The notes under the pieces: model-generated
Database searches by the model: none
The model's input: the letters and a program-made list of their open reading frames with translations, nothing else
What the model was told of the DNA's origin: nothing
Translations under genes and position numbers: made by a program
Part shown: one piece after another, positions 37,624-48,106 of the stretch
Layout: every line of letters starts with the position of its first letter
How positions within the stretch are numbered: position 1 is the first letter of the stretch
From: a virus
Lineage: Duplodnaviria > Heunggongvirae > Uroviricota > Caudoviricetes
DNA: 48,323 bases
Virus record (IMG/VR): IMGVR_UViG_3300031419_000007
Reading direction: 5' to 3' (one strand)

Positions 37624-37982
37624 AACAGTCATGGGCGAAGCTCCGGATGGACCTCTATCTCAAGGGGATTCATCCGGACGTCCTGGGTTCTCCGAGGGAT
37701 GTCATCTTCAGGCAGCACGCTATGAACGAAATCGTTCAGGAATCCAGGAAGCTTATGGCTGGGGTCGCAGGCTCCCTCGGTAACAGTCAGGCCGCCAAGC
37801 AGATTCTTCAAGATTTCGCTAAGAGCTTGTTTGATACACCGCAAACTAAGCAACACCGTCATGCGGATATGCTTAAGTATTACAACCAGCACGTTAAGCA
37901 TCTGGCTCCAGAAGCCAAGTTGGTTACTGATGGTCAAAACAAGTATCTCAAAGTGTCAGGTCTGGAGGAATTGAATGGCTGA
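37614..37982 (+). CDS. Tail assembly chaperone frameshift extension (lambda T-like)
   Basis: The -1 frame reads KFLKQSWAKLRMDLYLKG...; no clear SD at ATG 37647; overlaps the tape measure start. Confidence 0.7.
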   Translation, partial: KFLKQSWAKLRMDLYLKGIHPDVLGSPRDVIFRQHAMNEIVQESRKLMAGVAGSLGNSQAAKQILQDFAKSLFDTPQTKQHRHADMLKYYNQHVKHLAPEAKLVTDGQNKYLKVSGLEELNG

Positions 37983-40900
37983 TAATATGTTCTCACAAGC
38001 ACCGATGTCCACGTATTACGGCTTCGGTATCAACCCGGCGTACACCACGCCGGCTTACATGTCCAACTTCCGTCCGGCGTACGCGTCGGACACTGATCCC
38101 TATAACCCGTACTCGCAGAACCGCTCCTACGCGGATGCCCTGCGGACCCAATACCTCTTCCAGCCTGCTGGCACCTTTGCTTCTGACCCGTCAGAGGATG
38201 AACGTGCTAACAACTGGGCCCTGAACTCAATGAACTCCGACGGATTCATGAACGGCGTCACCAAGATCGGTGTCCCGCTGGGTGCGTGGTATGCGGCCAA
38301 CAAGTTCTTCGGGCAGAAAGTCGGTGCGAATTCGCCGACCGCTGGCCTGTATAACCGTTCCTCAGCGTATGCCCGTGCGATCTACCAAGGTCAAGGCATG
38401 GGTGCGGCGGCGAACGCGTGGTCGTCAGTGGCTGCGAGACAGTCTCTGGGCGGCGCTATGGGGTCTGGCTTCGGTCGTTTCGCAGGGAGTACCTTCGGTA
38501 GGGGTATCGGCCTTGCGGGCCGTGCAGTGGGTCTGGGGGGCGCTCTCGGGGGTGCTGCAGCAGTCGGCGGGACAGCCGGTGCCGTGCTCGGTGGAGCGGT
38601 CGGTGCCTTAGCGGCTCCAATCCTCGGCGGAGCGGCCCTGGCTAAAGCGTCAAACTACTACCTGTCAGATCCGTACGTCGGGATCCGCCGGGGTGAAGAC
38701 GCGATGCTGGCCAACACGGCCAACACGTTCGTCGGTGGGCAGGCTACGCCTAACATGGGGACCTTCGGGATCTCTGCCACGCATGCCAACTCCCTGAGCC
38801 GTGCCTTCATGTCTTCAAACATCCAGGACAAAGGGTTCAAGCCGGGCGATTACGCTGCGATGGCAGACTACGGGATGCAAGCCGGCCTCTTCAATGAAGT
38901 TGGCAACATGAACGTCGACCAGATGAAGAAGAAGGTCGAAGGCATGGCAGACGCCGTCAAGATGATCATGGCGGTGGCCAACACGAACTCCGTGAAGGAA
39001 GCGATCCAGTACATGGGCCGCTTGAAGGCTGCCGGCGTGTCAACCACCGGTGGTATGAACCGTGTGATGTCCGAAATGGGTATCGCGAGCGGTGTTTCCG
39101 GTGCGTCGGCCGAGCAGATCATGAACACCGTGGGTAACCAGGGCCAGATGATCGCTCAACGTCTGGGCATCCTGCCAATCATGGGTCAGCGCCAAGCGTC
39201 CAGCATCTTTGCCGGCTTCGCAAACGCCTACAAGTCGGGCTCTCTGCATCAAGCGGACGTAGCGGCTATGGGCGGGGTCGAAGGGGCGACTCAGCTGGTC
39301 ATGGAAGGCGGCGGACGTATCATGAATAACCCGTACTTCAAAGCCGCGATCAACTCCGGTGCTGAACTCGGTACCGGCAACATGCTGAACGTGTCGCAAG
39401 CCTTCGGTGGCCGCCGTGCGAGCAACCCACTGCAGTCGTTCTCAGAAGATCAGCTGAACTTCGGGGTTAACGCATCGCAGTACCTGGGCAAACACTCGAT
39501 GGGCAGCACCGTGCTGAATTACCTGTACGACAAGTCAAAGTACACGCCAGCGGCTCAGATGAAGGACGGGTCCGGTAAGGTCAACATCATGTCTGCTGTA
39601 GGTATGGCTATCGCTCGTGGAGAACTCTCTGCGGAAGAAGGCCGTGCGGTTATCGAGCAGTACAAGATGAGCAAGGAACCTGACTACCAGCGTCGCATGG
39701 AGCAGGCCACTCGTGGGTCAGCAGACAAGCAGATGCAACAGTACACGTCTCAGCAAGGTTATGACACCCTGTCTGGTGTGCCGTTGATCGGCCGCATGTA
39801 CCAAGTCGGGCGTGATCTGAACCGTGATGGTTTAGCAGGTGGTTCGGCAATCGGCGGAGCGTTCACCAAGATGCGTGCTGGGATGGCGGACTCGTGGGAC
39901 TCCTTCGCAGCCGGTATCCAGGGCCGTACCCGTGACCAAGATCGTCCGGTTGCCCGTTACGGTATGGAAAACGGCGTACAGACGTACCAAACGACGGATT
40001 ACTACGCGGCCACCGACACCGGCCACCGCATGACCCAGTATGACGGCGTCATGAAGGCAATTGCAGCAGACTCCGCTGCAGACCCAACTTCGGAACTCGG
40101 TAAAGTCGTGACCCAGTTGAAAGCAAACTTCGGTAAGAAGGGTGCGGATAACCGTGCGTTGCTCGACAAGTACTACCGTCTGAAGAAAGGTGACGTCGGT
40201 GCCCCGGGTGGATACTCGAAGGCGGAGTACATGGACTTTGCCAACCAGGGTCTGCAGTACGGCGTGGCCAAAACGACCAAGCAGACGGCAGCAGATCTGA
40301 ACCCGAAAGTCAGTGATGACTTCCTGACGGCGTACGTCGACGGGCTCGAAGGCAAGGGTCGTGCCGCGGTGAACAGCGAGTACGTGAAGTCAGATGCGTA
40401 CAAGACGGCTGGGTTCATGGACAAGTACACGCCGTTCGGTGACGGCTTTGAGAAGTTCGCCAAAGGTCGTTTCGGTAAAGGCGACGGTGCCCGCGTGTTC
40501 AACGCAGCAATCCGTTCTCAAGCCCGCACCGGTAAGGCGGACCTCGGCGATCTGTTCGACGCCGGCGGTGACGGTAAGACGTCGTACTACTCAGCGGACT
40601 TCGGTAAGCTCCTGTCGCAGTACAAGCAGGATAAATCGAAGATGTCGGCGGAAGATCGCTCTCGTGTGGAAGAATACCTGGCGATGCAGAAGATGTCTGG
40701 CCTCGGCGGGGACAAACTCAGTGCTATCGACCAAGGAATCCTGGCTCTCGGCCGTGGTGACACGGACAAAGCCGGTATTCTCTACGGAAAAGACGGGGAC
40801 GCCCTGAGAGCCGGTGCGAGCAACGCCATCAACGCGGCCACGGAACGTATGGACGTCTCGAGTTACCGTAAGGGTGTCAAAGGGGCTCTGGTCGGAGCGA

Positions 40901-41316
40901 GTTACACCGGTGTTGACGTTGACGCCCTGGACTCACGTACCGATTCATCGCTGGGTTCACTCTCTGCTCAATCCCGTGCGGAAATGATCAAGCGGTCTGG
41001 CGAGATCTCTGCTGCTGCTCGTGACAACATCAATCAGAACGTGACGGAATCACAGAGTCTGAGCGACAAGTTCGGTGGGGAGGATGCCCTGAAATCCTTC
41101 GGTGACGTCGCAGACGGAATCGGTAAAGCGACAGAAGGCCTGTCCGGTTCGGCAGATGCCCTGACCAAGGCCGCCTCGGAACTCAGTAAAGCAGCAAAAG
41201 CCGGAGGAAATGATCCAAGATTGACGGCAGCGATCGAAAATCTAAACAGGATCCTCCCGGGTCTTAAAGGTGGACCAAGCCCGGGTGTGAACAATAACTT
41301 CGGAGGACCACGATGA
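37975..41316 (+). CDS. Tape measure protein
   Basis: 1113 aa, Ala/Gly/Met-rich and helical, with Gly-rich hydrophobic segments; follows the G/GT chaperone pair. Confidence 0.8.
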   Translation: MADNMFSQAPMSTYYGFGINPAYTTPAYMSNFRPAYASDTDPYNPYSQNRSYADALRTQYLFQPAGTFASDPSEDERANNWALNSMNSDGFMNGVTKIGVPLGAWYAANKFFGQKVGANSPTAGLYNRSSAYARAIYQGQGMGAAANAWSSVAARQSLGGAMGSGFGRFAGSTFGRGIGLAGRAVGLGGALGGAAAVGGTAGAVLGGAVGALAAPILGGAALAKASNYYLSDPYVGIRRGEDAMLANTANTFVGGQATPNMGTFGISATHANSLSRAFMSSNIQDKGFKPGDYAAMADYGMQAGLFNEVGNMNVDQMKKKVEGMADAVKMIMAVANTNSVKEAIQYMGRLKAAGVSTTGGMNRVMSEMGIASGVSGASAEQIMNTVGNQGQMIAQRLGILPIMGQRQASSIFAGFANAYKSGSLHQADVAAMGGVEGATQLVMEGGGRIMNNPYFKAAINSGAELGTGNMLNVSQAFGGRRASNPLQSFSEDQLNFGVNASQYLGKHSMGSTVLNYLYDKSKYTPAAQMKDGSGKVNIMSAVGMAIARGELSAEEGRAVIEQYKMSKEPDYQRRMEQATRGSADKQMQQYTSQQGYDTLSGVPLIGRMYQVGRDLNRDGLAGGSAIGGAFTKMRAGMADSWDSFAAGIQGRTRDQDRPVARYGMENGVQTYQTTDYYAATDTGHRMTQYDGVMKAIAADSAADPTSELGKVVTQLKANFGKKGADNRALLDKYYRLKKGDVGAPGGYSKAEYMDFANQGLQYGVAKTTKQTAADLNPKVSDDFLTAYVDGLEGKGRAAVNSEYVKSDAYKTAGFMDKYTPFGDGFEKFAKGRFGKGDGARVFNAAIRSQARTGKADLGDLFDAGGDGKTSYYSADFGKLLSQYKQDKSKMSAEDRSRVEEYLAMQKMSGLGGDKLSAIDQGILALGRGDTDKAGILYGKDGDALRAGASNAINAATERMDVSSYRKGVKGALVGASYTGVDVDALDSRTDSSLGSLSAQSRAEMIKRSGEISAAARDNINQNVTESQSLSDKFGGEDALKSFGDVADGIGKATEGLSGSADALTKAASELSKAAKAGGNDPRLTAAIENLNRILPGLKGGPSPGVNNNFGGPR

Positions 41317-41522
41317 ACATCCAAATCGTCAACATGAATGCAACTGAGTTGTTCCGTCAGCAGGTAATCGGCGCCATGGAGGGCGTCCGGTTCCAAAACT
41401 CTGGTGGAACCCAAACCTATCTCCCGCTGCAGCTCGGCGGGGTTTTTGCCCAACTGGACTTGCTGTCCGGTGGACACGCACTGCGTATCACGAGAATCGT
41501 AGAGGACTCAAATGGCGGATAA
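41313..41522 (+). CDS. Hypothetical protein (69 aa)
   Basis: ATGA overlap; SD GGAGG. Confidence 0.65.
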   Translation: MNIQIVNMNATELFRQQVIGAMEGVRFQNSGGTQTYLPLQLGGVFAQLDLLSGGHALRITRIVEDSNGG

Positions 41523-42924
41523 CAAATACGGAATTGCCCGTATCAACCAAGAAGGCGAACGCCTCTTTACCGTTCGTCCTCGCTACAACGCCACCAGCGA
41601 AGATAACCCGACGCGTGGTGAAGCTGCCACGCTCCGTCTGGTATTGAGCGAGAAGCCTGACGCCTCGACGATCAATGCATTGACAGCCGGCATGCCTTAC
41701 TTCGAAGCGATTGCGTTCAAACGCATGATGAACCAGGACGAAGGCAACGGTGGTTACAAAGACTTCATCATGACCGACTTATCGTATGACATGTCTGAGA
41801 AATATCAGGTGTTCCATACGTTCGGCGGCCATGAGGCAGTCTACTTTTACGGTCAGAACCCGCTGGCGATCCGTGTGTCGGGCGTGTTGACGGACGATCT
41901 GGATAACGACCAGTTTGCCCGCTTCGCCCAGCTGTACACGAACCACTTGCGTGGAACCAAGGCTGCCCAGAACTACGCGATAGTCGAACTGGCCTTGCCC
42001 AACGCCACGTTCTTCGGGTCGATCACCAACATCTCGTTCCAGCAGAACGCCGCTCGTGACACCGACATCGGGTTCACCATGGGCTTCCTGGTCAAAGAGA
42101 CGATCTTCCGGTCAACCGACGTGTACTTCCAGGATGATTCCGGTGAGGTTTCCGACTACCAGGACGAGAACTTCCTGGGCACGCGGCCGACGGCGACGAT
42201 CACCGCGTCTGACATCTACACCAAGATTGCGGACTTAACCGCAGAGATCGACGATCTGGGACGCTCGACCAATGCCAACAGCATGCTGGGACGTGGTGGC
42301 ACGGGATCTGGTGGCTTCAACATCTTCGGCGTGTACACACAGGCGATCAACTCGATTCCATCGATGTCAGATCTCTTGGGTATCGGTCCGGAAGACATTG
42401 CCGCGATCCTGACGACGTGGAACAACATTCTGAACGACATTCTGTCGGTGCCGAATGCCATCATCAACAAGGTGAATAGCTACGCGGACGAGGCTGTGTC
42501 ATACTTGACGACGGTCGAGCGTGGCCTCGACCAGATGATGGGCCAGATCACCGGTACCGTCGGAGCGTTCTACGGCGCTATCGACAAGGTTAAAGACACG
42601 ATCGGCACCATTGCCAACTTCCCGGAAAGCCTGGCATCCCGTGTAGGTCGCTTCCTGGATAACGGCTTCATGTCACCGAACGGAGCGGACGGTTCCTTCC
42701 TGCTCAGCTCACACGGCGGTGGCAACGGGGACAGCCCGAGCAATGCTCTGGTCGGGGGTGGAGCACTCGGGGCAGCGGCAGCGGCGAGTTTGCTGTCTGC
42801 GGGGTCGCGAGCAGATCCTGGACCACAACGTGGCGCCACGATCAAGCCTGTTCCGGTTAACGTCGGTATCGTGAAGAATTCAGATCAAACGGCAACACTG
42901 CCAGTGGGAGTAATCGATGAGTAA
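41512..42924 (+). CDS. Putative baseplate/tail tube initiator protein
   Basis: Tube-like N-terminal half (EKYQVFHTFG..YFYGQNP...VSGVL...FFGSITNISF...FTMGFLV) plus a helical region; follows the tape measure gene. Confidence 0.55.
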   Translation: MADNKYGIARINQEGERLFTVRPRYNATSEDNPTRGEAATLRLVLSEKPDASTINALTAGMPYFEAIAFKRMMNQDEGNGGYKDFIMTDLSYDMSEKYQVFHTFGGHEAVYFYGQNPLAIRVSGVLTDDLDNDQFARFAQLYTNHLRGTKAAQNYAIVELALPNATFFGSITNISFQQNAARDTDIGFTMGFLVKETIFRSTDVYFQDDSGEVSDYQDENFLGTRPTATITASDIYTKIADLTAEIDDLGRSTNANSMLGRGGTGSGGFNIFGVYTQAINSIPSMSDLLGIGPEDIAAILTTWNNILNDILSVPNAIINKVNSYADEAVSYLTTVERGLDQMMGQITGTVGAFYGAIDKVKDTIGTIANFPESLASRVGRFLDNGFMSPNGADGSFLLSSHGGGNGDSPSNALVGGGALGAAAAASLLSAGSRADPGPQRGATIKPVPVNVGIVKNSDQTATLPVGVIDE

Positions 42925-43597
42925 TTTAGGTGTTCGTTCCTACGCCAACTCGATGTTGATCGAGAACCTGTTCCGTCAGCGGGCCATGCCAGACCTGCTG
43001 CCGAACGTGAAATCCTTCACGACCCGCATCCTGATGCCGAGCGTGAAGATTGTCGAGGATGATTGTCACACGTTGATTGGCCGTAACGTCTCGGCCGACG
43101 ACTATTCCATGGTGGGCTTGCTCGCCTTGGATACCGACGAGATCATCGATGAAGCGTACGTCGTGGAACGTTACAAGAAGAACATTTTCACGATTCGCGT
43201 TCGTGACACGTGTGCATGTACCAGTACGGGTGGCATTTGCCGCAAGTGCTTGCACGGGACGTTTATCCGTTTGGGCATCAAGGATGAGGTTCCGGCGGTA
43301 GGTTCCACCATCCGCATGCCGGTGGAGTCCTCGTCGTACCTGAACGCTCTGGCCAAGACCTACAGTGGCGCCCTGCTTGGGGTTAAACCCATGGCGGCAG
43401 CGCCATTGCCGATCCGTCCTGATTTATACGGTGGGATGGTGACCCACGAGGAAATGACAATGGTTATCCGTGAGATGGCGTCTTTAAAAATCCCAACAGA
43501 TGAGGTAGACTACCTCAATGGGATTCACGACAAATTCGAACGTGCCCTAGCGATTGTTGCTTACTACGGAGTCTACGGTAATGCGTTTAGAAAATAA
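42917..43597 (+). CDS. Protein containing an RNA polymerase beta-prime-like zinc-binding module
   Basis: IVEDDCHT...IRVRDTCACTSTGGICRKCLHG compared with RpoC VTEDDCGT...[21 protein letters not shown]. Confidence 0.65.
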   Translation: MSNLGVRSYANSMLIENLFRQRAMPDLLPNVKSFTTRILMPSVKIVEDDCHTLIGRNVSADDYSMVGLLALDTDEIIDEAYVVERYKKNIFTIRVRDTCACTSTGGICRKCLHGTFIRLGIKDEVPAVGSTIRMPVESSSYLNALAKTYSGALLGVKPMAAAPLPIRPDLYGGMVTHEEMTMVIREMASLKIPTDEVDYLNGIHDKFERALAIVAYYGVYGNAFRK

Positions 43598-46500
43598 TCT
43601 TGGCGGGGATAACATTTACACCAACTTTCGGGTGTACGTGGAAGGGGTAGAAATCCCCTTCTCTTCAGCCAATATCTCCAACTCCTATGGTGGCCTCCCA
43701 ACGGCCACCGTTTACGTTGCCCCTTGGCGTGGCTTCACGGAGATCACAAAGGGATACTTCCCGAAAATCCAGATCTTCTACCGTGACTTCAACCAAGGCC
43801 TGGCACCGTACGACGTTAAACGGCTGATCAGCACCATTCCGGATATCGAAGGTGCCGAAGAACGTCTCGAAAACGCCAAAGAGACCTTCAACAAGGTCGA
43901 GCGTAACGCATACAAAGTGCTGTTCGACGGCGTTATTGCCAGCGTTCAGGACTCCAAGAGCCTTGGCGGCGACGGCGGTCAGTCTTCCATGGCGTTTAAC
44001 TGCGTCCACCCACACTATTTGCTGAACGAAATCCTCTTCAAGTTCATCGGGACCAACCCGGAGACCGAGACGGCGAAGGATTCTGCGTTCGGGATCATGG
44101 TCGATGGCGGTAACGTCGGCTCAGTCTTTGCCATTGAGCAAGCCCTGGCCGGTGTTCACGAGCCACGGGACAACGATAAGACCCTGGAGGCCGGTGGCAG
44201 CGACACGTCGGTGCTCTCGGAGGGCATGCAGGACAACTATTGGCGCCTTCAAGGCATGCCCGGTGTCATCGTGGCCATGTGGAACTCTCTGAAACGCTCG
44301 GCTTACTCCGCGGCGTCGCAGGAAGACAAGTCGATCATGACCAAAATGTACATTCCGCTGTTAGAAGACGGCTTGAAGTACTTCAACCGCATGACCGGGC
44401 ACCCGGTAATCGAAGGAGCGATCCAAAAGGACGCTCAGATCTCACCTACGCCGGCCCCGACGGTGACGCAGACAGCGGAAAGCAACACAACACCGACCGG
44501 AAAGCTTCCCGAGCCGCCAAAAGGCACCCTCGGACAGAAGTTTATGTCGGATAAAGGTAAAAAAGAGCTGATTGAGTTTGCTGAAGGCCGTCGCTACCGT
44601 CTTTATGACGATGCTACGGGCAAAGAGATCACTTTCGCTGCCGATGCAGTGGGTACGCCAACCATCGGTGTGGGTCATGCCGTGAAGAAAACGGATACCA
44701 CCTACGACAAAGTCACTCTTTCGGACCTGGACATCGATAAACTGCTGAGCCAAGACGTGGCGTCGGCGACACAGGCTGTGAACAACCTGGGATTAACCCT
44801 GTCACAGGGCCAGTTTGACGCTCTGGTAGACCTGACGTTTAACGTCGGCCCTGGCGCCAAGGGTGGTAAAGACGGAGCACTGTGGCAGGCAAGCGGTGAA
44901 CCGTCAACGATCGTCCGTTTGATCACCGAAGGGAACACTCAGGGCGCTGCTGACGGCTTCCTTGCGTGGACCAAAGCGGGTGGATCCGTATCTCAAGGTT
45001 TGGTGACCCGTCGTTCACGCGACCGTTCATTCTTCCTGGATGCCCCACTGCCCTCCTCTCAGGAGTTGGCAAACCAAGCTGCCGCGGCCAAAGGTACCAC
45101 CGAAGAGATGTCGAACAACAACGGCAAACTCGTCCCGGCCAACCTGAATGGCTTAATGCCCCGTGCTATGGCCGAACAGCTGCTGCACATCATGTCCAAC
45201 GATCTGATGTCTGGCGGCACCGGTGAAGTGACGTCGTTCGGGTCATTCATCCAGCAGTTCCTGCAGATCATCGAGTACGATCACGTCATCATGAACTCGC
45301 CGGCAGTACTGGGCATCGCGGGCCGTCGTGAAGTCATCGACCACGTGTTTAAACCGAAGATGTTCGCGTACTATTCTCCGATCTGTAACGTCATTCTGCC
45401 GCACATGTACGAATCGATGAGCGTGAACCTCGGGACAGACCAAGTGCCTTCCCGTGTGATCTACAACGCGATGCCGTTCCAAGCCGATTCGGCCATGAAT
45501 GCCACGACCGACGTGTTCGCCCACAACTTCATTGCTCCACACTCTGTCCGTAAGGCGCTGGCTAATGGCGGCAACCTGTCCAAGACGTTGCTCCCGATGC
45601 GTGCGACCCCGGGCAAATACGAGTGGGCGAGCGGTGTGCGTACGGCGGACGGTAACCTGCCATTCTGGTACAGCGTGCTGTCTCAGCAGTCTGAATCAGC
45701 GAACGTCGGTGACTTAGCGGACAAAGACACTGGTGCCCGTCTCAAAGCGGCGTGGTTGAAGCTGTATCCGGAAGACCCGAACCTGAACCCGTGGGACGTG
45801 ACGCTGGCCGGAATCAACGCGTATGAACGCTTGTTCTTCACCGGTGTTGACGTGGAATACTCGAACATCTACTCGTCTGCCCGCTCTGGCGTCGTAGATG
45901 GCGTGTTCAACCCGTTCATCATCCCAGGCTACCCAATGGACGTGGTAGATCCGTCGCCGCTCCGTGAGTCATACCACGGTTTCTGCACCAGCGTGAACCA
46001 CTCGATCGATGCATCGGGCTACTCCTCGACCAACGTCGGGATGAGCTCTGCGTACACCTTCTCGGAATTGGCCACGTGCTATATCCCGGGGACGTACCCG
46101 TGGCTGCTCGCTCAGTTGAAGATGGATGAAAACCTGAAGATGTACGGCAATACGCCTGCCTTCCAGCGTGCCTGCCAGTACTACGTTGACGTTCTCGGTG
46201 TTGGTGCGGCCGATCCGACTATCCTCGAAGCGTATTCAACCGGTAAGCCTATTCCGGTGAAACGTAACATGGGTGTCTGGGAGATTGGCGGCTCAGAGGC
46301 GGTGAATGATCCGTCACGCCCAACGCTGTACACGACGACGCTCGGTAACCTGAACCTCGTGGCCCGCAACATCTCGACGCTTCTGGATGTTCAGATGGAA
46401 CACAGCGTTCTGGCCGAAACCTTCGTGGATATCGACATGTGGAACCAAGGGTCACCGACCGTGGAAGAAGTCCGCAAGGGTCCGTGGGTGAATGACGGCA

Positions 46501-47099
46501 AGACGGCGTCGAGCAGTACGCTGCGGGGTCGCGACATGGAGTCTTCGGCCTTCATCGACTACGAGTTCGACGGCGAGACGCCAGATCCAATCGTGAACGC
46601 TGATCCGCGTAACACCAACACGTCTCCGACGCCAGGTGCTCCAATTACCAGCGATGAGAATGCGGCCAAGAGTCTGCCGGCCACGCCAACCGTTCTGCCT
46701 AAACTAGGTAAGCGGTGCTCGGTAGGCGTACTGGATTCGTCTTCACAGTCGATTCTGGCTTCCTGTCACCCGGATCTGATTAAGGTCGTGATGAAAGTCA
46801 TCGAGACCCGCCCTGTGGTCGTCACCAGCGGTTACCGCTCTGACGCCAAGCAGCAAGCCCTCGAGAATGACGCGTCGTCTTACGCTCAAGGTGCTGGCAA
46901 CGGTTCCCGTCACCGTAAGTACCCGTCATGGGCGGTGGACATGGTGCCGTGTAACGATCTGCATGCATCTTCACGTGCGGTGATGAGTAACTTCGCCCAG
47001 TACGTGCTGCAAGTCGGGAACTCACTCGGCATCAAGCTGCGTTGGGGTGGAAACTTCTCAACCTATGATCCGGTGCACTTCGACTTAGGCCTCGGTTAA
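43581..47099 (+). CDS. Baseplate hub-like protein with an inserted GH24 lysozyme and a C-terminal M15 peptidase
   Basis: Hub-like FRVYVEGVEIP...VLFDGVI and FNPFIIPGYP...VNHSI; lysozyme AEG..RLYDD...TIGVGH...QFDALVDLTFNVG...GLVTRR; M15 CHPDL...SGYRS...SRH...AVD...WGGNF..DPVHF. Confidence 0.82.
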   Translation: MRLENNLGGDNIYTNFRVYVEGVEIPFSSANISNSYGGLPTATVYVAPWRGFTEITKGYFPKIQIFYRDFNQGLAPYDVKRLISTIPDIEGAEERLENAKETFNKVERNAYKVLFDGVIASVQDSKSLGGDGGQSSMAFNCVHPHYLLNEILFKFIGTNPETETAKDSAFGIMVDGGNVGSVFAIEQALAGVHEPRDNDKTLEAGGSDTSVLSEGMQDNYWRLQGMPGVIVAMWNSLKRSAYSAASQEDKSIMTKMYIPLLEDGLKYFNRMTGHPVIEGAIQKDAQISPTPAPTVTQTAESNTTPTGKLPEPPKGTLGQKFMSDKGKKELIEFAEGRRYRLYDDATGKEITFAADAVGTPTIGVGHAVKKTDTTYDKVTLSDLDIDKLLSQDVASATQAVNNLGLTLSQGQFDALVDLTFNVGPGAKGGKDGALWQASGEPSTIVRLITEGNTQGAADGFLAWTKAGGSVSQGLVTRRSRDRSFFLDAPLPSSQELANQAAAAKGTTEEMSNNNGKLVPANLNGLMPRAMAEQLLHIMSNDLMSGGTGEVTSFGSFIQQFLQIIEYDHVIMNSPAVLGIAGRREVIDHVFKPKMFAYYSPICNVILPHMYESMSVNLGTDQVPSRVIYNAMPFQADSAMNATTDVFAHNFIAPHSVRKALANGGNLSKTLLPMRATPGKYEWASGVRTADGNLPFWYSVLSQQSESANVGDLADKDTGARLKAAWLKLYPEDPNLNPWDVTLAGINAYERLFFTGVDVEYSNIYSSARSGVVDGVFNPFIIPGYPMDVVDPSPLRESYHGFCTSVNHSIDASGYSSTNVGMSSAYTFSELATCYIPGTYPWLLAQLKMDENLKMYGNTPAFQRACQYYVDVLGVGAADPTILEAYSTGKPIPVKRNMGVWEIGGSEAVNDPSRPTLYTTTLGNLNLVARNISTLLDVQMEHSVLAETFVDIDMWNQGSPTVEEVRKGPWVNDGKTASSSTLRGRDMESSAFIDYEFDGETPDPIVNADPRNTNTSPTPGAPITSDENAAKSLPATPTVLPKLGKRCSVGVLDSSSQSILASCHPDLIKVVMKVIETRPVVVTSGYRSDAKQQALENDASSYAQGAGNGSRHRKYPSWAVDMVPCNDLHASSRAVMSNFAQYVLQVGNSLGIKLRWGGNFSTYDPVHFDLGLG

Positions 47100-47112: not shown

Positions 47113-47403
47113 ATGGCTCAATACAGTGACATTTTGACCTACCCTGAAGGACTTCCGGCCCAGCTGCCGGAGTCCCAGGTGGTGGACCCAGATGCGAATC
47201 TGGTAGAAACCGACAAGATGAACGTCGTTCGGCGTTTTAACAACATGATCCCAACGGTGCTGATCTCTGACCAGCGTCTCTCGACGACCTCGAATGCAAA
47301 GGACTGCTTCGTGTACCGTCGGAATTCGCTCAAGCTGCAGCAACTGATGGTGGATTACTCGTACAACGTCGTGCGGGCGTTCAATTTAACTCAAGAGGTG
47401 TAA
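47113..47403 (+). CDS. Hypothetical protein (96 aa)
   Basis: Fills the space between the hub and sigma genes. Confidence 0.7.
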   Translation: MAQYSDILTYPEGLPAQLPESQVVDPDANLVETDKMNVVRRFNNMIPTVLISDQRLSTTSNAKDCFVYRRNSLKLQQLMVDYSYNVVRAFNLTQEV

Positions 47404-47404
47404 C

Positions 47405-48106
47405 ATGAATGATTTAGGCGACAAGGATCTCGAGCTGTTCCACGCGTGGAAGAACACCGGGGACAAGAAGGCTCTGAAGAACCTGGTGAACAACCTGAAG
47501 CCAATCATCCAGAGTGAGACGACGAAGCTCTCTGGAAGCTTGCCTGCCTCGGCCTTGAAAGGTGAAGTCGTCTCCTGGACGATTCGTGCCATCAAGGATT
47601 ACGATCCGAGCAAGGGCACCAAGCTGTCGACCCACGTCTATAACTGGACGCGTAAGGCCAAGCGCCTGAACTACACGTACCAGAACCTGGCGAACATGGG
47701 CGAAGACAAACAGCTGCAGTACGGCAAGTACAACCTCGCGGTGACCAACCTTGAGGATGAACATGGCCGGGAACCGACCAACAAGGAAATTGGCCAACGG
47801 CTGGGCTGGTCGGAGAAAGAAGTCGAGAAGTATAAAGGCCTGATCTTCCAGGATCACTTTGAGTCCGGCAATCTGTACTCTGCCGAGCACTCACGGTTCA
47901 ACTCGGACCCGCTGAAACTAAACTACATTAGAGACAAGCTGACCCCGGACGAACTGAAGATCCTTGATGGACGAGCGAATAAGATCCCTGCGGGTGATAT
48001 CGCTCAGTCCCTCAACATGAACATCAACCAGTACAACTATGCGTCCGGTAAGCTGACAAGTAAAGTGCAGCAACTACTATCGGAGTATGGAACGTGGGAC
48101 AATTAA
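47405..48106 (+). CDS. Phage sigma-70-family factor (FliA/SigB-like; putative late sigma)
   Basis: Region 2 GDKKALKNLV...AIKDYDPSKGTKLSTHVYNW; region 3 LEDEHGREPTNKEIGQRLGWS; degenerate region 4. Confidence 0.85.
   Translation: MNDLGDKDLELFHAWKNTGDKKALKNLVNNLKPIIQSETTKLSGSLPASALKGEVVSWTIRAIKDYDPSKGTKLSTHVYNWTRKAKRLNYTYQNLANMGEDKQLQYGKYNLAVTNLEDEHGREPTNKEIGQRLGWSEKEVEKYKGLIFQDHFESGNLYSAEHSRFNSDPLKLNYIRDKLTPDELKILDGRANKIPAGDIAQSLNMNINQYNYASGKLTSKVQQLLSEYGTWDN

Follow-up and report, generated by a model that had tools for sequence, protein, structure and literature searches.

A fragment of RNA polymerase beta' that has lost its catalytic residue and probably serves as a tail-hub protein in large phages encoding their own polymerase

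Introduction

A 48,323-nucleotide stretch of tailed-phage DNA (IMG/VR record IMGVR_UViG_3300031419_000007; the whole of this stretch is hereafter called the window) carries, within a block of putative tail genes, a 226-aa open reading frame (ORF; 42917..43597, + strand) whose product, P0001, resembles the second zinc site (Zn2) of beta', or RpoC, a subunit of RNA polymerase (RNAP). The question raised by this locus is what a piece of a polymerase is doing among tail genes. A first-pass annotation made from the sequence alone had offered three answers, namely that the protein belongs to a split phage RNAP, that it imitates or modulates RNAP together with a nearby sigma factor, or that an RNAP domain has been put to use as a virion part. 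The last of these is the best supported, by a fixed gene slot, by lectin-domain insertions in orthologues, and by the detection in virions of gp7, the orthologue from Salmonella phage Arash (PMC10585845). We consider it probable that P0001 is a non-catalytic beta' fragment exapted as a tail-tip or baseplate-hub structural protein in large myoviruses that encode RNAP, the group termed mReC.

Results

P0001 is a real gene product with homology to beta'

The ORF was present as first described, with the motifs IVEDDCHT (residues 45-52), IRVRD (93-97) and C101-x6-C108-x2-C111 lying between nucleotides 43049 and 43249 (43049-43249). Its ATG, which has GGGAG 7 nt upstream, overlaps the stop of the preceding 470-aa gene by 8 nt, and its 3' end overlaps the following gene by 17 nt if the latter begins at ATG 43581, which is preceded by its own GGAG and is the most likely start; the overlap with both neighbours that had been noticed at the outset is borne out in this form. 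An exhaustive profile search recovered 248 clusters of relatives (50% identity) at E <=1e-3, 158 of them at <=1e-10, including Arash gp7 (72% identity) and proteins of the Vibrio phages D181, D148 and D69 (43%). We conclude that the ORF is a real gene.

When the single P0001 sequence was searched against the PDB with phmmer, beta' chains ranked first (6j9e_D, E 0.0076, P0001 residues 45-115 on chain residues 832-903). A 16-sequence profile of the P0001 family gave 77 PDB matches (best E 3e-7) and a 50-sequence profile gave 72 (best E 1.5e-10); the best 60 of the 77 and the best 60 of the 72 were all beta'. BLASTP aligned P0001 with the C-terminal beta' subunit (beta'C) encoded by the same phage at E 1e-8, and a hidden Markov model (HMM) of the family matched just two proteins in the whole phage genome, P0001 itself and beta'C. 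Using HHalign, the family aligned with eight phage beta'C sequences at 98.4% (E 8.7e-15, residues 39-136 on 225-322) and with 80 bacterial beta' segments at 98.2% (E 6e-14, 131 columns, P0001 42-175). P0001 matched no Pfam family at E up to 10, PF04998 (Rpb1_5) included, and did not reach the gathering score; nor did it match anything in PHROGs. At the level of sequence, the case for true homology between P0001 and beta' is solid, and it is the profiles that carry this claim, as structural comparison alone would not suffice. The proposed match to the second Zn site of RpoC is upheld and extends beyond the spacing of the cysteines.

The opposite reading, that the resemblance is a chance cysteine spacing or that the ORF is no gene at all, could draw on the shortness of the match and on nothing else. 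It is exceedingly improbable given E-values of 1e-10 to 1e-14, with beta' alone among the matches listed, the 248 conserved clusters and the detection of Arash gp7 peptides (PMC10585845). We rejected it on the number of clusters together with the best HHalign and profile E-values.

The cysteines of the zinc site are kept and the catalytic histidine is lost

The ligands of Zn2 in E. coli beta' are C814, C888, C895 and C898, and its trigger loop includes M932, R933 and H936. Residues 39-136 of P0001 (43031..43324, + strand) are homologous to the Zn2 module, and the four family cysteines align to the beta' ligands (C-x(n)-C-x6-C-x2-C, in a homologous sequence context), with putative Zn ligands at C50 (43064-43066), C101 (43217-43219), C108 (43238-43240) and C111 (43247-43249). 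The first three are invariant across a 50-member family alignment, as are P41, G55, R96, G106, G151 and E208, and C111 is found in at least 90% of members. The likeness to bacterial RpoC thus includes the order of the ligands, their x6 and x2 spacing and a homologous small domain between ligands 1 and 2 (G-R-x-V ... D-x-x-I-D ... V-R), and the alignment carries on from there through a trigger-loop-like segment.

That segment, residues 137-175 (43325..43441, + strand), is degenerate. HMMER alignments of the family with beta' from Bacilli and Mollicutes set A-K-T-Y-(gap)-S-G on M-R-T-F-H-S-G-G, so that every member of the family lacks the catalytic His of the trigger loop and the Met position is also replaced, and P-L-P-x-R (PLPIR in P0001) falls on G-L-P-R-V of the second trigger helix. 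Judged from these alignments, P0001 is a Zn2 module followed by a degenerate trigger loop. The earlier statement that the trigger loop and DFDGD motifs are absent therefore needs dividing: DFDGD is indeed lacking, while a trigger-loop segment does align and is absent in the functional sense alone.

Sequence homology is limited to residues 39-175. No sequence match to beta' was found for the N-terminal 38 residues, which form two helices (42917..43030, + strand), or for the C-terminal ~50 residues, a further set of helices (residues 176-226 and the stop, 43442..43597, + strand) in which E208 and Y220 are conserved and a YYGVYGN tail is kept in the window's subgroup. The profile alignments begin no earlier than residue 39 and include no recognisable bridge-helix sequence, and neither NADFDGD nor the double-psi beta-barrel occurs in P0001; the one Rpb1_2 domain in this phage genome lies in a 1525-aa polymerase fusion described below. 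Compared with bacterial RpoC, P0001 is therefore distinct in having only 226 residues, no double-psi barrel, no DFDGD and no recognisable bridge-helix sequence, in its deleted His and replaced Met, in going unrecognised by PF04998, in its setting, a tail gene block, and in the detection of its Arash orthologue in virions.

Structural agreement with beta' is weak

An AF2 model of P0001 (pLDDT 79.7, pTM 0.73) was compared with known structures. VIA-align placed model residues 43-133 on E. coli beta' 807-916 (Z 6.3, root-mean-square deviation (rmsd) 4.2-4.3 A over 72-74 residues), with Z values against beta' of 5-6.3 overall, and some of its rows set residues 1-42 weakly on the bridge helix (rmsd 6-7 A). 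In a wide VIA search the best match was again beta' (Z 5.0), with nothing else standing out, and an ESM-Atlas shape search returned Rpb1_5 clusters only (TM 0.40-0.44, 135-155 residues), some of its rows likewise setting the N-terminal helices on the bridge helix. Foldseek against the PDB put beta' at the top, but at E >0.2 and with poor rmsd; a BFVD search gave nothing usable. Taken together, the predicted fold agrees weakly with beta'.

The helices on either side of the zinc module had been called unrelated to it. In sequence this holds, as they lack any match, yet ~135-155 residues of the model superpose on beta' domain 5 at the TM values above, and the flanking helices may not be unrelated to beta' after all.

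Orthologues carry lectin-type insertions and one is found in virions

The main difference among the orthologues of P0001 lies in insertions at a single site, immediately C-terminal to the zinc knuckle and at the foot of the first trigger helix, making the N-terminal edge of the degenerate segment an insertion hot spot. P0001 itself has no insert (0 aa), most members have one of ~60 aa, and some have one of ~160 to 645 aa. Five of the long orthologues match Pfam Laminin_G_3, of the concanavalin A (ConA)-like lectin superfamily, and one such domain is appended C-terminally; both of the long orthologues whose context was checked lie in the canonical gene slot. A conserved scaffold bearing variable lectin-type domains suggests an exposed protein of the baseplate type rather than a polymerase cofactor.

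In purified Arash particles, gp7, annotated only as 'structural protein', was detected at 77% coverage (7 unique peptides, 202 spectra); normalised to protein length, its spectral count is close to that of the neighbouring gp6 and gp8 and below that of sigma or beta (PMC10585845). An alternative that these data bear on is that P0001 is a hub or tail assembly factor, a chaperone or catalyst like T4 gp51 that is not stoichiometric in the finished virion. Its position in a small-gene slot beside the hub gene, with translational coupling, would suit such a role, and the Arash proteome is permissive enough to allow carry-over. The lectin-bearing orthologues, however, point to a protein that is displayed and retained, as do the coverage and spectral count of gp7 in purified particles, and we regard an assembly factor as unlikely.

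The gene occupies a fixed slot among putative hub genes

Of 18 IMG/VR loci, 17 shared one and the same slot for the P0001 gene, as did five metagenome loci; the exception, L019, keeps the upstream order and differs only downstream of the P0001 gene. Upstream, the order runs from terminase through two small genes, a Gly-rich tape-measure-like gene (880-1116 aa), a 65-84-aa gene and a 430-584-aa gene to P0001, and downstream it continues with a 750-1171-aa gene, a 67-102-aa gene, the sigma factor and genes of ~130 and ~170 aa.

In the window, the putative tape-measure protein is a 1113-aa Gly/Ala-rich product (37975..41316, + strand) orthologous to Arash gp4, and its size fits the 140-nm tail reported for Arash (PMC10585845). 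It is followed by a conserved 69-aa ORF (41313..41522, + strand), 65-84 aa long in all related loci and without family assignment, and by the 470-aa neighbour (41512..42924, + strand) to which P0001 is translationally coupled; for this protein a language model alone supplied leads, to tail-tube-initiator, DNA_circ_N or Dit-like families. On the other side lies a 1172-aa protein (43581..47099, + strand) with a VgrG/gp27-like hub region at its N-terminus, a GH24 lysozyme insert and a C-terminal M15 peptidase. Its N-terminal ~150 residues, in a model of pLDDT 54.6, match the hubs of VgrG, extracellular contractile injection systems (eCIS) and T5 pb3 at E 2e-3 to 1e-2, which makes a VgrG-type identity moderately supported. 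The lysozyme domain is present in only 3 of 10 relatives, which suggests that a conserved core acquired its hydrolase domains recently.

Beyond the hub gene are a ~96-aa ORF (~47113-47403), which has no family assignment and whose size and position are conserved clade-wide, like those of the 69-aa ORF, and a phage sigma-70-family factor (47405..48106, + strand), which sits within the tail-hub/baseplate block and keeps its position in all related loci examined. Further downstream, one relative has a weak Sheath_initiator match and a tailspike with an endosialidase barrel. Searched member by member against Pfam, both neighbour families yielded only Phage_lysozyme, noise such as Baculo_PEP_C and one sub-threshold phiKZ_IP match, and PDB sequence searches of P0001's neighbours returned lysozyme and M15 only. 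The gene cluster around P0001, which lies between tape-measure-like and VgrG-like hub genes, is reasonably called a baseplate or hub cluster (a baseplate cluster in the first-pass annotation), and the label is moderately supported.

The phage encodes a polymerase that P0001 does not complete

The window belongs to a 176,323-bp phage genome with terminal repeats, and a search of the whole genome for beta and beta' fragments found two polymerase genes, both outside the window. The first encodes a 1525-aa fusion of beta with the N-terminal part of beta' (beta-beta'N; G000:C1:36431-41008, equivalent to L007:2432-7009), in which Rpb2 domains 2, 3 and 6 are followed by Rpb1 domains 1 and 2. The second encodes the 613-aa beta'C (G000:C1:44461-46302; Rpb1_5), which matches Thermus beta' at E 3e-46; this complete and presumably active subunit has a Zn2 site of its own and retains the conserved His in its trigger loop. 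The P0001 gene lies 46 kb from the polymerase genes, in the tail block.

Several further features of the polymerase region were observed. The fusion appears to be subclade-specific: the open frame containing Rpb2_6 is just 1133-1224 aa in four other clade members, and G001 also has a long frame, of ~1510 aa. The ~3.4 kb between the fusion and beta'C genes (G000:C1:41009-44460; L007:7010-10461) hold several small ORFs, mostly on the opposite strand, one of which has a weak match to the P22 antirepressor N-terminus, and a SNF2-family helicase gene follows directly after beta'C.

These genes bear on the proposal that P0001 works as one part of a divided RNAP. Such division is common in phage RNAPs, beta' itself consists here of a beta-fused N-terminal part and a separate C-terminal part, and P0001 is homologous to beta'. 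The beta-beta'N fusion and the complete beta'C, however, leave nothing for P0001 to supply, since the region that P0001 corresponds to is already present in beta'C, where the trigger loop is intact. P0001 has neither the catalytic His nor a bridge-helix sequence, is not matched by Rpb1_5 even at E 10, and is encoded far from the polymerase genes. We rejected this proposal once the Zn2 site and the His-bearing trigger loop of beta'C had shown that subunit to be complete, and we consider it very improbable.

All eight complete genomes that carry the P0001 gene and were searched, namely the window genome, Arash, D181 and five IMG/VR genomes of 149-193 kb, also encode beta and a beta'C of ~610-650 aa. 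These phages correspond to the RNAP-encoding Caudovirales clade (mReC) of Weinheimer and Aylward 2020 (PMC7481178). Because the co-occurrence is clade-wide, it is not proof of functional coupling.

A different link to transcription would be that P0001 is a packaged beta' look-alike that binds beta-beta'N, beta'C, sigma or host RNAP, and that might fasten the packaged polymerase to the machinery of ejection or, once injected, modulate transcription. Its homology to a fragment of the beta' catalytic centre, the conservation of the sigma gene within its block, the presence of RNAP in all eight genomes and the detection of beta, beta' and sigma in Arash virions, the sigma orthologue with 100% coverage (PMC10585845), are all compatible with such a role. 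The co-occurrence is not independent evidence, though, and the missing His and the few beta' surface residues retained weigh against such a role; insertions of up to 645 aa with lectin domains are typical of exposed virion proteins and not of polymerase cofactors, and the abundance of gp7 tracks its hub neighbours and not sigma or beta (PMC10585845). No positive support emerged for the earlier suggestion of a mimic or modulator acting with sigma, and we give an RNAP-linked factor an outside chance.

A more specific and quite unlikely version makes P0001 an ejected or tail-associated docking element for virion-packaged phage RNAP and sigma. Here P0001 would mimic the surface formed in beta'C by the bridge helix, Zn2 and trigger loop, and would keep hold of the beta-beta'N fusion, or act as its chaperone, while the fusion is packaged, ejected or refolded. 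If this were true, the tail tip would be physically linked to the first round of phage transcription.

The fragment appears to be old and may derive from the phage's own beta'

The closest scoring relative of the P0001 family is the mReC beta'C (gp216 in Arash). The family HMM scored 45-63 bits on the eight phage beta'C sequences, whereas on the 80 bacterial beta' sequences its median was 36 bits (range 20-46), and in both phage proteins a similarly short spacer separates ligand 1 from ligand 2 (50 versus 51 residues); they differ in that beta'C is a complete subunit with the conserved trigger-loop His that the P0001 family has lost. A tree built on the Zn2/trigger-loop stretch of 25 P0001-family, 8 phage beta'C and 40 bacterial beta' sequences resolved three separate clades, one for each group, with long joining branches that suggest an old origin for the fragment. 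The tree does not discriminate between the phage's own beta' and a cellular source, while the bit scores favour the phage gene; duplication from the phage beta'C gene is plausible on this sequence evidence.

Across the eight genomes, pairwise identities within the P0001 family and within beta'C are correlated (r 0.79), and the P0001 family diverges faster (22-72% identity versus 46-84%). This fits a long vertical co-inheritance of the two genes.

Two further observations arose from these searches. The top-scoring 'bacterial' beta', both for the beta'C query and for the P0001-family HMM, came from a 4.9-kb contig binned as Parcubacteria (L038, MWCR01000026.1), which could be a mis-binned phage fragment. 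Four large proteins (P0176, P0178, P0179 and P0181; 1658-2728 aa) matched the family profile in 8-16 short repeated stretches, at profile positions ~36-100, and are probably beta' proteins with repeated inserts of the hybrid-barrel type.

Discussion

We propose that the source of P0001 was a beta' fragment comprising the Zn2 module and the trigger loop, perhaps along with the last part of the bridge helix. In the protein as it now stands, the four cysteines would bind one Zn ion and so staple a rigid knob onto a helical bundle, which would anchor P0001 beside the tube-initiator-like and VgrG-like hub proteins encoded on both sides. The loop right after the zinc knuckle would face outward; it would hold a ~60-aa beta-rich insert in most relatives and, in some, up to 645 aa with ConA-like lectin domains that probably bind host surface glycans. 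P0001 itself would be the minimal form, and since it has no display domain, its role in the window's phage would be purely architectural.

Several points weigh against this proposal. The placement of P0001 in the baseplate is one that we infer, and the identities of its neighbours come from a low-confidence model (pLDDT 54.6) and language-model leads, the proteins being unrecognised by Pfam and PHROGs. None of the PDB, BFVD and wide VIA searches matched P0001 to a known baseplate fold. With 116 of 272 proteins listed, ribonucleotide reductases and kinases among them, the Arash proteome is so permissive that the detection of gp7 is weak-to-moderate evidence, as the authors of that study concede (PMC10585845). 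Lastly, the P0001 gene lies 3.8 kb from the sigma gene, and it is this proximity, together with the sigma orthologue and RNAP subunits detected in Arash virions, that keeps an RNAP-linked role in contention.

Among known systems, one analogy is with baseplate-core proteins that bear inserted carbohydrate-binding modules (CBMs), such as the 'evolved Dit' of lactococcal siphophages. By analogy, both would combine a conserved scaffold, a single insertion site and very variable lectin- or CBM-type domains; P0001 differs in its beta'-derived scaffold of unrelated fold, in its myovirus context, and in the sugar binding of its orthologues, which is a prediction. The resemblance to T4 gp26, gp28 and gp51, proteins of ~200 aa also encoded beside hub and tape-measure genes, is one of position only, as no sequence or fold similarity to P0001 was found in the PHROGs, Foldseek PDB or wide VIA searches. 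The split subunits of phiKZ and AR9 and the polymerase YonO are, like P0001, phage-encoded and beta'-derived, but they are working polymerases that retain the catalytic double-psi barrel, whereas P0001 is just a Zn2 and trigger-loop piece stripped of its catalytic residues. Our literature searches found no prior description of this beta' paralogue, and the searched passages of the mReC paper mention none (PMC7481178).

Seen as a probable structural protein, P0001 represents a piece of the RNAP catalytic centre that was duplicated, stripped of catalysis and long kept in a virion gene block. The family offers a recognisable marker gene for the RNAP-encoding phage clade and, as an ancient paralogue, might help to polarise the deep-branching lineage of phage beta'. 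In polymerases the trigger-loop region is known as an insertion hot spot, the SI3-type inserts being an example, and in the P0001 family the same region would be an insertion hot spot in a structural protein as well. The lectin-like inserts of the orthologues could be host-recognition modules, and as Arash is a cultured Salmonella phage, these predictions are directly testable on gp7.

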